A DNA stretch of 64,000 nucleotides, from positions 32,682,786 through 32,746,785 of the forward strand of contig NC_057725.1 of the NCBI RefSeq assembly GCF_004010195.1, in the 5' to 3' direction. Within the stretch, counting starts at the first letter, position 1. Each line of letters opens with the position of its first letter. The stretch is from Chiloscyllium plagiosum (taxonomy: Eukaryota). The translations under genes and the position numbers were made by a program. Shown piece after piece: positions 18,566 to 40,522 of the stretch. Under the pieces are notes generated by a model. The model was not told the origin of the DNA and did no database searches. It worked only from the letters and a program-made list of their open reading frames with translations.

Positions 18566-18879
18566 TTAAAAAACCAGATGCATACTTTTTTCCATCACTT
18601 CTTGGGTTTCTGGATGAATAACCTCACAGCTGATTCCTATGCCCTGATCAGATTCTTCTGGTGTAAGTTCTATACTTGTTACAGATGAGAAGAGACCATT
18701 TTTATTAACTTCAGGCTTAGTATGAGCCACTGGACCTATGAAGGGCTGCTTTCCTGCAAACCACCTAATTTCAATTCCTTGAGGTGCATAATCAGTCAGT
18801 TCAACGGTAAAAGTTGCCACTTTGTTTTTCTCTGGTTGCGTTGGGTTACATTTGATTTCCGACAGAGTGGGAGGAGAAC
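18566..18879 (-). CDS. Gene A exon 10 (terminal): post-TM C1-like Ig domain 6 (B-strand Cys absent), ends in TAA
   Basis: tttaag| acceptor; GSPPTLSEIKCNPTQPEKNKVATFTVELTDYAP...IRW...NGLFSSVTS...ISCEVIHPET...HLVF*. Confidence 0.83.
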
Positions 18880-19855
18880 CTTAAAACAGAACAGAACGTA
18901 CAAATATTGAGTGTGCACATTATCTACAGTGATAATTTGTCTCAATGTTACAGTAAACGTTCTTGACATAACTTTAGCAAATTGAATTACTGTTCTCATA
19001 TTGAACAGCAGGAATCATGAGAAATCAAAAGCTGGACCAAGGAAATATTTGGGAGTGACAATTGAGATAAACATTCTTTTAGATTAGATAGATTAGATTC
19101 CCTACAGTGTGGAAACAGCCCTTCGGCCCAACAAGTCCGCACCGACCCTCCGAAGAGTAACCCACCCAGACCCATTTCCCTTTAACTAATGCACATAACA
19201 CTATGGGCAATTTAGCATGGCCAATTCACCTACCAGAGGGATGTCATTTTTAGTAAGGCCATAAAATGAATTTCCCAGATTATTTGCACTCCAGAATACG
19301 AAAATAATTAGTAGAAGCACCAAAAGGCTGAAAAAGGCAAATTTTTTTTCTGCTTAACAGTTCAGAACACAGCATGAAATTACTGAACTGTTAGAAAGGC
19401 ATGGATAGTCAACATAGGTTTACAAAAGGTGGCTCATCTTTTGGGTGAGGCCTAACAGTAGCACCCTCTGCACAGTAAACAAATGCACCTAACAGGGTGG
19501 TTTTAACAGCAACTAGTCCTGACATCTCACCTAACTCTCAGTAATGACTTCAAATTCCACATCTGGGATCAGACTTGGACTGCCATTCTAAACTTAATGT
19601 GAATAACCCAAAGAGCAGTGTTTGATCATTTAGCAAGTTCCAGTCTTCTGAAACCAATGAATTGGTACATTCACCCATCTGGGCCCATTTATAATGAATA
19701 TAAAAGCACTGGAAATAGGTATTTAGGAGCAGGTGCCACTTTTATGAATGATATTTCTTTAAAACCATGATAAATTCAATTCTATTCTTGTTTCATAAAT
19801 CATTCAATGCTCAAGTTTCTGCAGTAATTAGAGTTTTGCACAATTTTAAACATAC

Positions 19856-20167
19856 CTGGAAGCTTCAAACATAGATGCTTTTGAATAGGTTTGGGTAAAG
19901 CTTTATGTGTCACCTCAAATATAATTTCCTTGTTATCATCCAAAGCTGTTGGTGTTAACTCCATGCTGGAAACTAACTGATAATAGCCACTTTCTTCCTT
20001 CTTAGGCTCTGTGGTTGTGACTCCACTGGAGACATACTTGTTATTCATTCGCCATCTGGCAGACAATTCATTTCCAGAAAAATTTTTTACTTGGCATTTA
20101 AGAACAAGGCGCTGTCCATAGGATGGAACTTCTGGCTCCAGAACGATGTCAGAAACTACTGGAATTC
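19856..20167 (-). CDS. Gene A exon 9: post-TM C1-like Ig domain 5 (F-strand Cys absent)
   Basis: aaatag| acceptor, |gtatgt donor, 312 nt; GIPVVSDIVLEPEVPSYGQRLVLKCQVKNFSGNELSARW...GYYQLVSS...IIFEVTHKAL. Confidence 0.83.
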
Positions 20168-21159
20168 CTATTTGGAAACAAGATACTGTTCATCAAGCAT
20201 TTTTTTCTCCATCCAAACTGATTCCACATCATGACCTATTGTACCTATATCACCACTCAGCATGCACTAGTTAACAAAGCTACCCAATTCATTTTTGTTT
20301 CCTTTTACTATTCCCCAAGAATGCCAAACATCATTGTGAGAATATGTATAGGGTATATGCAGGCAGGTAAAGAGTTAAGTTCTGAGTTTTGTCAGATAAG
20401 AACTTAGAGTTAACAATTCAGTGCTGAAGGCAAGGGTAATGGGTTAACAAGGTGGAAAAGCAGTAATTATGTATAGACATTTAACAATATTGGAAGCGTT
20501 CAGTATGAAAAGTCAGTCAACAAGGAGAAAAGTATCGATTATATGAATCCAGTTAAACAAGTTAAGAACATTCATTGTATAACAGTAAAGGGCTTGGTCT
20601 CTGCTATTGATACTCATTAATTGTAACGATCACTCAATTAATATGTACGTTGCCTTATCTGGATGCTCCTCTCTGTAAAATGACTTTATAGTTCCTTGAG
20701 AAACTGTTTGAGAGAAGACCGAGAACTTGTGTCTCTATGCACATGGGTGATCATTCTCCCTCCCTTTGGGGCCCAGAATAAAGAAGGAGGCAAAACCATA
20801 CAGGTGTCTCTGAGTGTTTTGCTTCGACTGAGGGGGAAAAGGGATGACACTATTTGCACATTTAGTTCCTGTCTTGGTCACCTTGTAACTACATATCTGT
20901 AATTGCTGTCAAGTCATACTCATTTCATTTCTATTTGTGCTTGCCAACTTGCCTACCTTGTTAAGAGTGCTGTGTGCATTCAGATAGAAAGCCTTGAGTT
21001 TTGACTTTTTCTAGTTCTAATTTCTGCTGCACAGCTCTGAATATATTTTCTATCCCATGTCACACTTGGATTATCATTCATCTCTTCAATACCCTGCACC
21101 GCTGCTTTCACACTTCTTTTTGATTTTTTTAAACTTCACCAATTGAACACTTTTCTCCT

Positions 21160-38460: not shown

Positions 38461-39199
38461 ATGAACAGGTTATTTTACTGTTGTAACCATTACTGCTTCT
38501 ACCATAGCCAAAACAGTGAATTGAGTAGGTTATTAAAACCTGTCATATTACAATCAACAAATGGAAACATGTTTGCATTCTACATGAAAGGAAACATAGT
38601 GCTATGATTCTCTGGTAAAAAAAAGATGATAAAGTTGAGGTCAAAATCAAGATTTGTGAAACAACTTCGAAAACATAAATAATTGTTCTATCTATTCCAG
38701 TGATGTCAAAACTGTTTTTGCCCAACTATGTACAGGTTTGAAATTACAAGAAATTTAGTAGTAACTGTGGTCATTCATACCATTGTCGAAGAGAAGTCAA
38801 AGCAAATTACTATTTTTTTTTTACAGCATGAAGTATATGCTTAACAATCCTTAAATTCTCAAAAATGCAATCATTTTCTTGTTACGGCATGCTTATACCT
38901 TTACTCCATCGTTTTACTTATAGTCTTGAGGCTCCCAATGTTTATTTGAGAAGACTCTTCAGCTAATAAAGTGGTTGTCAACTCTTTGTCTAAATGCACA
39001 CGATTAAGGATTTATTCACCAATGAGTAACAATGGAACATCTGCTCTCTACTGAATTTCCTGTAATTTCAATCCTGTCCATAGTCGGGAAAAATCCAGTT
39101 TTGACATCCCTCTCTAAATATTGAACTGTTGCTTTATTTATTGTCCAACTGCTCCTATAATAAGGTTATGCAATACGAAACATAAGGGCAGTGGAAACA

Positions 39200-39640
39200 G
39201 AGGATGTACAGGCTGAATAGGCTGGGGCTATACTCCCTGGAGCATCAGCGGCAGAGGTATATAAACTTTACAGAGGTTTATAAAATCATGAATGGCATGG
39301 ATAGGGTGAATAGACTAGGTTTTTCTTCCCAGGGCAAGGAAGTCCAGAAGTACAGGGCATAGAGTTCAAGGGTAGAGGGGAAAGATTTGAAAGGGACTTC
39401 GGGGCAACTTTTTCACTCAGAGTATGGTATATGTATGGAACGAGTTGTCAGAGGAAGTGGTAGAGGATGATACAATGACAACATTTAAAAGGCATCTGGA
39501 TGGGTACATGAATAGGAAGGGTTCAGAGGGATATGGGCCAAATGCTGGCAAATGGGACAAGATTAATTTAGATTATCTGGTTAGCATGGATGAGTTGGAC
39601 CAAAGGGTCTGTTTACACACTGTAAAACTCTGTGACTTCA
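39200..39640 (+). mobile_element. CR1 LINE 3' fragment
   Basis: VWNELSEEVVE...FKRHLDGYM. Confidence 0.8.
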
Positions 39641-40087
39641 TAAAATGTATATAATGAGATGGATAAAAGATAAATGGTCAGAACAATTTGGGGTTTAGTA
39701 AGCCAGTGACCAGTTTTCTCGCCCTGTGCAATGATATTCAGTTTACCATGATATTCTGGAAACCATCCTACAACAAGATAGTTCATGTGTGTTTCTGCAA
39801 ACGTATAGGTTAATTTGCCATAGTTCTAGAGAACCATACAGCTTCTCACTCATAAAAGAGAGATGACTGGTGGTGAGGGAAAGGGAGGGGTTAAGAAAAC
39901 AGGATCGTCATGGTAATCTCAGCTGGTGTGGGAATCAAATCTACATTGCTGGCTCATTTGGCATCACAATCCAGCTATCTAGCTAACTAAACTAACGAAG
40001 CCCCATGTGCAAGTATACATGCATACCTCTGTGTTAACAAAATTTCTTTGGATATATTTGATTAGCAATAACTTGTAATTTACTTAC

Positions 40088-40522
40088 CACCTTCAACTTT
40101 CAGACAAGTCTTCCTAATTATAGGCATATTGAGAGCGCTATGGTGGACTTGAATCTGGAGGACAGCTCCATTATCAGTTTCAATATCAGGCCAGAACAAA
40201 ACTTCACAATTCACACTGGAGCTACCATCATTGTTGCATTTAACAGTTGGCACCTTAAATTTGAAGGATTTTTCCTCTTCTTCAGTTTGATATGTACAGT
40301 TTGAAATAAGTTCCTTCTGCTCATCTCCTCCTGAATCCTGTAGGGTCTGAGGTGTAGGGCTCCATGAATAAATTTCCTTTGGTGCCCTATCATCTCTTCT
40401 TTGTAGCAACCAACTAATAGAAACGTTCTCAGGCCTATATCCAGAAATCTGACAATTCAGAAGAGCCTCTTGCAAATGTATAAGTCTTGGAGGTTGGCTG
40501 ATATCAGAAACTTTTGGAGGAA
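40088..40522 (-). CDS. Gene A exon 5: post-TM C1-like Ig domain 1 (long acidic insertion; F-strand Cys absent)
   Basis: ttttag| acceptor, |gtaagt donor, 435 nt; LNCQISGYRP...ISW...AVLQIQVHHSAL. Confidence 0.83.

Follow-up and report, generated by a model that had tools for sequence, protein, structure and literature searches.

A bamboo shark B7H6 gene with six C1-set domains predicted to lie behind the membrane, four of them lacking the canonical cysteine pair

Introduction

B7-H6 and NKp30 form one of the few natural killer (NK) receptor-ligand pairs that can be traced from shark to human. The cytoplasmic tail of human B7-H6 is about 170 residues long, contains no immunoglobulin (Ig) domain, and is described as gag-like, with immunoreceptor tyrosine-based inhibitory motif (ITIM), SH2-binding, and SH3-binding sequences. 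Here, we analyze the B7H6 gene of the bamboo shark Chiloscyllium plagiosum (genome size, 3.56 Gb), which lies in a stretch of 64,000 nucleotides on contig NC_057725.1 (positions 32,682,786-32,746,785); this whole stretch is referred to below as the window. Behind the exon for its transmembrane (TM) segment, the gene continues with six further exons of the C1-set type, and four of the six encoded domains lack one Cys of the canonical disulfide between the B and F strands.

Butyrophilins such as BTN3A1 carry an intracellular B30.2 β-sandwich that acts as a sensor, and they provide a precedent for inside-out signaling to lymphocyte receptors. Integrin β4, a type I membrane protein, carries fibronectin type III domains in its cytoplasmic tail. 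To our knowledge, all C1-set domains described so far are extracellular. Shark UrIg2 is described as consisting of a VJ domain and nine C1 domains, followed by a TM segment and a cytoplasmic region (PMC12227049).

We propose that the bamboo shark gene encodes a type I B7H6 with V and C1 domains outside the cell and six further C1-set domains in the cytosol, and that four of the latter lost their disulfide before cartilaginous and bony vertebrates separated. We give this reading a probability of roughly 70%.

Results

Gene structure and transcript evidence

A stop-to-stop open reading frame (ORF) scan combined with a splice-site scan placed a single gene on the minus strand of the window, corresponding to NCBI LOC122558089 of Chiloscyllium plagiosum. 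Its exons follow the order leader, V, C1, and TM and then the six C1-set-type exons, D1 to D6, which we refer to as the tail. All exons from V to D6 are of phase 1-1 with AG/GT borders, and their nine translations are letter-identical to NCBI XP_043562343.1, annotated as "uncharacterized protein LOC122558089." The tail spans about 690 codons and is open throughout. The exons are listed here in the order of transcription, in window positions, as are all coordinates below unless stated otherwise.

56560..56635, minus strand: coding portion of the leader exon; MSRVRSSLPPLVPVLVLLLTLVPLS and one further base that opens a split codon, donor GTAAAG; located by tblastn with orthologue N termini and by sequence
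52251..52613, minus strand: V-set ectodomain exon; Pfam V-set E=5.5e-12; phase 1-1; both canonical Cys
49746..50066, minus strand: C1-set ectodomain exon; Pfam C1-set E=8.8e-11; phase 1-1; both canonical Cys and a third conserved Cys (HICTG)
43263..43379, minus strand: transmembrane exon; PEVVVPVGIITGCVIASILACTAITGIGFFVYFKYLKK; 117 nt; phase 1-1; assigned from hydropathy, spliced joints, a basic C-terminal flank, and an AlphaFold2 helix at residues 330-346
40088..40522, minus strand: tail domain D1; C1-like but divergent, containing a long acidic insert; LLNCQI kept in the B strand, LQIQVHH with Ile for Cys in the F strand
33714..34091, minus strand: tail domain D2; C1-set; AVTC and YICEV, both Cys kept
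32393..32704, minus strand: tail domain D3; C1-set; ASCR and LTCEF, both Cys kept
27423..27746, minus strand: tail domain D4; C1-set; B-strand IICHA kept, F-strand FKVEVLH with Val for Cys
19856..20167, minus strand: tail domain D5; C1-set; B-strand LKCQV kept, F-strand IIFEVTH with Phe for Cys
18569..18879, stop codon 18566-18568, minus strand: tail domain D6; C1-set; B-strand FTVEL with Val for Cys, F-strand ISCEV kept; ends ...MHLVF

The Pfam C1-set model (PF07654) scores D2 at 28.9, D3 at 41.1, D4 at 32.1, D5 at 48.6, and D6 at 34.8 bits, with a cut-off of 21. D1 reaches 20.4 bits, marginally below that cut-off, so that five of the six tail domains pass and D1 is borderline. The TM exon has no Pfam match.

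The leader exon encodes a signal peptide and is spliced in phase 1 to the V exon, reading ...E-QGDLIV. The annotated N terminus of XP_043562343.1 (56552-56930, minus strand) is instead read in another frame, with a donor directly after ATGAGCCGG, and supplies about 80 residues without a signal peptide; these first 80 or so residues are modeled with a predicted local distance difference test score (pLDDT) below 50. Judged from the nucleotide and orthologue sequences, the NCBI N terminus is wrong, and the orthologue-like leader is MSRVRSS...PLS at 56560-56635.

Since Ig exons of phase 1-1 always join in frame, the open frame alone is little proof that the exons belong to one message. We placed spliced contigs of four runs, from two studies, on positions 40000-50100; the run type is RNA only by guess, and the removal of introns in the contigs speaks for RNA. 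The joint between C1 and TM (43379/49746, skipping 43380-49745) occurs in contigs of three of the four runs, and the joint between TM and D1 (40522/43263, skipping 40523-43262) occurs in contigs of all four. Both joints match the predicted borders exactly, with GT..AG on the minus strand, and contigs from the second run organism ("organism B") are letter-identical in the exons compared. The contigs that join C1 to TM and TM to D1 thus place the TM exon in the mRNA. One contig of 3645 nt holds C1, TM, and D1 contiguously, with 535 nt more before and 2234 nt more behind, lengths that fit the leader plus V and D2 to D6 plus the 3' untranslated region, respectively. The junctions from D1-D2 through D5-D6 are based on splice sites, NCBI models, and the length of one contig.

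Identity as B7H6

Sequence comparison identifies the gene as the bamboo shark B7H6 (NCR3LG1) and its product as a putative type I membrane protein. The name follows the labels given by depositors: within the whale-shark 90% cluster, the nurse-shark sequence was submitted as B7H6, and databases list the frog orthologues under NCR3LG1. The protein has the signal peptide, V-set domain, C1-set domain, and single TM span of B7-H6, with an ectodomain nearer to B7-H6 than to other B7 proteins. When residues 84-308 were compared with the PDB by phmmer, human B7-H6 was the best match (E = 1.5e-31 to 4.4e-31), followed by CD276 (2.6e-17) and TAPBPR (7.6e-12). Foldseek aligned the predicted ectodomain to 6yjp_E with a TM-score of 0.93, a root mean square deviation of 2.1 Å, and 30% identity. 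A rearranging Ig gene of the IgW/IgNAR type was considered and rejected, as the ectodomain resembles B7-H6 and the V exon already encodes a J-like G strand.

The ectodomain C1 domain has a third Cys, Cys256 of XP_043562343.1, in the motif HICTG, which is kept in 17 of the 19 family proteins compared below and gives the domain an odd Cys count. This residue may form an inter-chain disulfide and so a covalent dimer. The stretch of human B7-H6 aligned to HICTG reads VITGP and has no Cys.

Canonical cysteines and predicted fold

To describe the Cys pattern family-wide, we counted the canonical positions in 19 family members, both orthologues and paralogues, sampled broadly among jawed vertebrates (18 for D6 and for the F strand of D2).

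V: B-strand Cys 19/19; F-strand Cys 19/19; no loss
C1: B-strand Cys 19/19; F-strand Cys 19/19; no loss
D1: B-strand Cys 14/19; F-strand Cys 2/19 (one gap); F strand replaced by I/V/L/F
D2: B-strand Cys 19/19; F-strand Cys 18/18; no loss
D3: B-strand Cys 19/19; F-strand Cys 19/19; no loss
D4: B-strand Cys 18/19; F-strand Cys 0/19; F strand replaced by V/I/M/A/L
D5: B-strand Cys 18/19; F-strand Cys 4/19 (three frogs and one newt); F strand replaced by F/I
D6: B-strand Cys 1/18; F-strand Cys 17/18; B strand replaced by V/I/L/S/T

Counted by alignment cell, the canonical Cys is present in 76/76 ectodomain cells and 149/224 tail cells (Fisher 8.6e-12, relatedness ignored). The replacing residues are I, V, L, M, F, or A with two polar exceptions, and the remaining half-cystine is conserved though partnerless. 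Of the tail domains, D2 and D3 alone have the canonical B-F pair of the C1-set, both in the bamboo shark and across the family. Because the same pattern holds across the 19 proteins, the loss is domain specific and ancient, and the alignment makes it likely that it predates the split of cartilaginous and bony vertebrates.

An earlier note on this DNA, made from its letters, had described the canonical Cys of V, C1, and the six tail domains, a loss in four of the six with retention in V and C1, and intact frames. All of its motifs lie on the minus strand, in exons whose translations are contained in XP_043562343.1; the loss it described recurs in the 19 proteins, and the tail of phase 1-1 exons is indeed open. 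The orthologue alignment that it proposed as a check returned the conserved hydrophobic replacements, apart from the two polar exceptions. The structure model that it likewise proposed as a check agrees with it. AlphaFold2, run with a 40-sequence alignment, modeled the protein at a mean pLDDT of 83.1 and each tail domain at about 90; low values are confined to the wrong N terminus, the first half of the TM segment, the D1 insert (residues 407-431), and one D2 loop. DSSP assigned strands A to G and a short EF helix or turn in all six tail domains and placed every substituted Cys position at its canonical register within the B or F strand. The six tail domains are thus predicted, by the model, to be confident β-sandwiches. 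The acidic D1 insert varies in length between species.

The note's further claim that the core Trp and the x-V-x-H pattern persist stands for D2 to D4 and D6, where Trp and His are conserved at 85% or more, and must be amended for the other two domains. D5 keeps the Trp, with its His below that level. D1 keeps the His of x-V-x-H, while its canonical C-strand Trp is present in sharks but lacks conservation across the family, where a conserved Trp some 16 residues further on takes its place.

In phmmer and Foldseek comparisons, the tail domains are similar to SIRP, shark UrIg2, and the constant domains of Ig heavy chains. For D5-D6, UrIg2 (9DMX) and the heavy chains of IgA, IgM, and IgG rank among the best matches, and titin I65-I70 is the top Foldseek match of the whole model. 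The ESM Atlas returned only generic C1-set clusters, such as SIRP and Fc.

Distribution and constraint

We searched a profile of four orthologues against 1.84 billion representatives, which matched at least 178 proteins at E <=1e-30. Names were looked up for 24 of them, with more added from later searches, and the named matches all belong to non-amniote jawed vertebrates: sharks, sawfish, rays, a skate, a chimaera, reedfish, coelacanth, lungfish, frogs, newts, and a caecilian. No full-length amniote protein with such a tail is among the matches listed, which is weak evidence of absence.

Domain typing with hidden Markov models (HMMs) built from seven elasmobranch sequences recovered the order V-C1-(TM)-D1-D2-D3-D4-D5-D6 unchanged in chimaera, reedfish, coelacanth, lungfish, frog, and newt, and paralogues with fewer or repeated tail domains. 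When 132 domains were placed in a tree, C1 and D1 to D5 each formed a pure clade of 19 and the D6 clade held 17 of 18 sequences (support, 0.69-1.0); the labels came from the same HMMs, so the tree is not fully independent of the typing. The identity to the coelacanth orthologue is 36% for V and 44% for C1, and 34, 45, 41, 40, 43, and 37% for D1 to D6. D4 shares 81% identity with Heptranchias, the highest of all domains, and is the most conserved tail domain among sharks.

Given that tail identity is close to ectodomain identity, we rejected pseudogene decay as an account of the lost Cys. The earlier note had reached the same view, which is borne out by a tail that is open and ordered from chimaera to amphibians, by a separate clade for each domain type, and by conservation like that of the ectodomain.

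Several family members depart from the full architecture. D1 is absent from Hemiscyllium isoform X2, and "X2" forms of about 742-773 amino acids are annotated in lamniform and carcharhiniform sharks. A Heterodontus paralogue carries seven D1-like repeats, and many members of 400-450 amino acids have a tail consisting of D1 only.

Topology of the tail

In a hydropathy survey of the first 60 family proteins, most showed one internal hydrophobic span, located around residues 220-300; five have none, three have it displaced, and three have a weak second stretch. Nothing hydrophobic follows D6 by hydropathy. Among 99 family representatives with at least one tail domain, 93 have a TM segment between C1 and the next domain. 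The TM flanks of the 19 proteins hold 32 Lys plus Arg on the N-terminal side and 59 on the C-terminal side, with acidic residues mostly on the N-terminal side. D1 starts about 5-8 residues past the TM segment.

Sequons for N-glycosylation differ between the two sides of the TM segment. The ectodomains contain 45 against 30.6 expected from shuffling (1.01 per 100 amino acids), with conserved sites in 6 of the 19 proteins in V and 10 of the 19 in C1. The tails contain 69 against 71.4 expected (0.52 per 100 amino acids), and no column reaches 30%; the difference in density between ectodomain and tail has a p value of 7e-4. Cys counts differ as well: V has exactly two in 17 of the 19 proteins, whereas tail domains have zero to six, about half of them odd.

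From the signal peptide, the single TM segment, the flank charges, and the sequon statistics, we infer an N-out, C-in topology. D1 to D6 are predicted to be intracellular because the TM exon is joined in frame upstream of them, and on this topology they lie C-terminal to the only TM segment, away from the extracellular location of other C1-set domains. The sequon and Cys statistics suggest that the tail evolved mainly under cytosolic rules. The earlier note's inference that these domains have long evolved in the cytosol thus gains support from TM splicing, the signal peptide, flank charges, sequons, and erratic Cys counts. ITIM-like or ITAM-like (immunoreceptor tyrosine-based activation) motifs in the tail were considered and rejected, since its single YxxL-like site, which lies in D3, lacks conservation in a four-species alignment.

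Other features of the window and its flanks

A second copy of the leader and promoter lies at 5828-6017 on the minus strand (MSRVRSTLLPLVPVLVLLLTLGPLS; 70-75% identity to orthologue leader queries), with no V or C exon behind it within the window, and probably represents exon 1 of a tandem paralogue extending beyond the window start. Outside the window, on the same contig and strand, weak D4-like exons occur at contig positions 32656323-32656634 and 32771469-32771618 (29% and 38% identity), about 26 kb before and about 25 kb after the window, respectively. These flanking exons suggest that several B7H6-like genes with Ig tails are arranged in tandem here.

ORFs that match a GIY-YIG nuclease (Pfam, 1.7e-05) occur at 42213-42851 on the plus strand, within the TM-D1 intron, and at about 58160-58990, and they resemble remains of Penelope-like retroelements. 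Reverse-transcriptase ORFs lie at 3073-3741 (plus strand) and 12335-12964 (minus strand), and a run of N at about 13300-13950, an assembly gap or masked stretch, falls within a retroelement-rich region. A family resembling short interspersed nuclear elements, its copies 76-85% identical, is represented at 34301-34650, with further copies at 57003-57270, 59843-60144, 31072-31245, 29842-30038, 62549-62725, and 19090-19231. An open frame at 362-604 on the plus strand matches RRM_1 (6e-08) and is an exon or processed copy of a gene for an RNA-binding protein, presumably RBPMS-like.

Discussion

Proposed explanation and its alternatives

In the cytosol, an Ig disulfide would bring no stability, and hydrophobic core residues likely replaced Cys in four of the tail domains, presumably under relaxed selection in a reducing compartment. 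The tail would then form a rigid, disulfide-independent Ig platform or rod, placed directly beneath the membrane because D1 starts so few residues after the TM segment. Such a platform might serve as a docking site for cytosolic partners or, in the usual manner of C1 domains, associate with a second chain, and it might link conditions inside the cell to how the NKp30 ligand is displayed or clustered, by analogy with the B30.2 domain of butyrophilins. That each of the six domains has kept its own character suggests specific partners more than a role as a simple spacer. A function of the tail as a sub-membrane platform that couples the cell interior to ligand display is a tentative proposal drawn by analogy. 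A wider scenario is more speculative still: C1-set domains would have worked inside cells from the beginning of jawed vertebrate history, the ancestral NKp30 ligand would use its six-domain cytosolic tail as a module for sensing or assembly that governs ligand display from within, TM skipping would turn the product into a secreted, antibody-like molecule of eight Ig domains, and amniotes would later have exchanged the tail for the short human type.

Several observations weigh against a cytosolic tail with anciently lost disulfides. The topology is a prediction from sequence. With domains taken as units, the contrast in Cys loss shrinks to 0/2 in the ectodomain versus 4/6 in the tail, as the cell-level Fisher value ignores phylogeny. 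Neither D2 nor D3 has lost a canonical Cys in any of the proteins (19/19 or 18/18), although an exclusively cytosolic past would not call for such retention. Annotated isoforms lack the TM segment: Microcaecilia isoform X3 equals X1 with an exact deletion of the 37-residue TM exon, X3 and X1 of Heterodontus are set apart by 31 residues of the TM exon, and Bombina NCR3LG1 isoform X2 joins C1 directly to D1. Likewise, 6 of the 99 representatives with at least one tail domain have no TM segment between C1 and the next domain. The product of a TM-skipped transcript would carry D1 to D6 into the endoplasmic reticulum and the secretory pathway. No direct C1-D1 joint is among the 15 of 132 contig joints listed, and TM skipping may occur in the bamboo shark as well, given that contigs drop rare variants and that only those 15 joints were listed. 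Finally, the E-strand Cys of D1 (SVNCEV) is present in 11 of the 19 proteins, the sole extra Cys column of the tail that reaches half of them; 10 proteins have both this Cys and the B-strand Cys, 4 the B-strand Cys only, 1 the E-strand Cys only, and 4 neither (Fisher p=0.11, non-independent data).

The strongest alternative holds that D1 to D6 matter mainly in a secreted V-C1-D1..D6 isoform, a protein of eight Ig domains that is Ig- or UrIg-like or serves as a soluble NKp30 decoy, and that the tail consists of extracellular domains which tolerate disulfide loss. The TM-less isoforms and representatives above speak for it, and the symmetric, phase 1-1 TM exon of 117 nt allows skipping in frame. 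The full Cys pairs of D2 and D3 and the similarity of the tail domains to Ig heavy-chain constant domains and UrIg2 also agree with it. Against this stand the TM exon in contigs of all four runs and the TM segment in 93/99 family members, tail sequons at chance level with none conserved, and unpaired canonical Cys in four of six domains with zero to six Cys per domain, which is unusual for secreted C1-set domains; a TM exon upstream with no stop behind it would also be an odd design for secretion. We regard this alternative as unlikely. The annotated TM-less isoforms may be real, regulated, or noise; their secretion could be the reason that D2 and D3 retain their Cys, and the tail may lead a double life, cytosolic and secreted.

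A second alternative supposes that another intradomain disulfide replaced the lost B-F bond, chiefly in D1 between Cys372 (B strand) and Cys454 (E strand). These two Cys lie in predicted strands of the same sheet and tend to co-occur, and no other extra Cys column of the tail is as frequent as that of the E strand. Yet the association is weak and confounded by relatedness, five proteins have just one of the two Cys, and the cytosol behind a TM segment normally forms no such bonds. The other domains offer less: the D4 candidate (FFYCES) is present in 4/19 proteins; the D6 candidate (EIKCNP) is present in 7/18, elasmobranchs only, with its would-be partner kept in 17/18; and D5 has no candidate column above 6/19. 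The earlier note had named the SVNCEV, FFYCES, and EIKCNP Cys as examples of those that could undo its reading. Assessed by conservation, the D4 and D6 Cys are unsupported in that role, and the D1 Cys is semi-conserved and tends to go with the B-strand Cys. The alignment thus gives no support for a substitute bond in D4 to D6, while one may exist in D1; as a general account of the loss, this alternative is improbable, more so than secretion.

An artefact, in which a neighboring V-C1-TM gene and a separate multi-C1 gene were merged or decaying exons were read through, would draw on the fact that phase 1-1 Ig exons join in frame regardless and on the NCBI model's indeed having a wrong N terminus, and we dismiss it as very nearly excluded by single contig molecules with C1-TM-D1 in two studies, by the same fusion and domain order in proteins of more than 30 species, including the deposited nurse-shark B7H6, by a TM-D1 interval without a leader or other Ig exon, and by tail conservation equal to that of the ectodomain. 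Two separate genes were rejected on the same contigs and shared domain order.

Significance

If about 75 kDa of folded Ig domains do lie on the cytosolic side, then C1-set domains are not purely extracellular. The family would then represent a natural experiment on the adaptation of Ig domains to a reducing compartment, with lost Cys and replacements kept for more than 400 million years, and the tail of this ligand would probably have an important role that mammals now fill differently. The TM-skipped isoforms raise the question of whether one gene provides both a membrane ligand and a soluble multi-Ig protein. We found no description of Ig domains in a B7H6 cytoplasmic tail in the literature searched, and an earlier print account is possible; GenBank has contained a full-length B7H6 of the nurse shark since about 2021, and the depositors of that sequence were surely aware of the long tail.

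Comparison with known systems

The bamboo shark protein is closest to human B7-H6 (3PV6, 4ZSO, and 6YJP), its best match in sequence and fold, with which it shares a V-set plus C1-set ectodomain and a single TM segment. It differs in its tail, which has about 690 residues and six C1-set domains. Butyrophilins share a B7/butyrophilin-type ectodomain and a folded β-sandwich module behind the TM segment, a likeness of working principle only. The bamboo shark module consists of six C1-set Ig domains instead of B30.2, no exon has a Pfam match to B30.2 (PRY/SPRY), and the module has no known ligand. Integrin β4 likewise has a tail made of domains normally found outside the cell, but these are of the fibronectin type III fold, in a protein unrelated in origin and function. 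Titin and obscurin offer tandem Ig folds in a reducing compartment, often without the B-F disulfide; theirs are I-set domains of soluble sarcomeric proteins, whereas the bamboo shark domains are C1-set, with x-V-x-H and the EF turn, and membrane tethered. UrIg2 and Ig heavy chains match in having one V domain followed by a run of C1-set domains, with an exon per domain. In those proteins, however, the TM segment comes after all C domains, which are extracellular and keep their disulfides, while in the bamboo shark protein it comes after the first C1 domain. The gene itself is a known one, B7H6; what is unusual is its architecture, together with the ancient and ordered loss of disulfides predicted behind the membrane.

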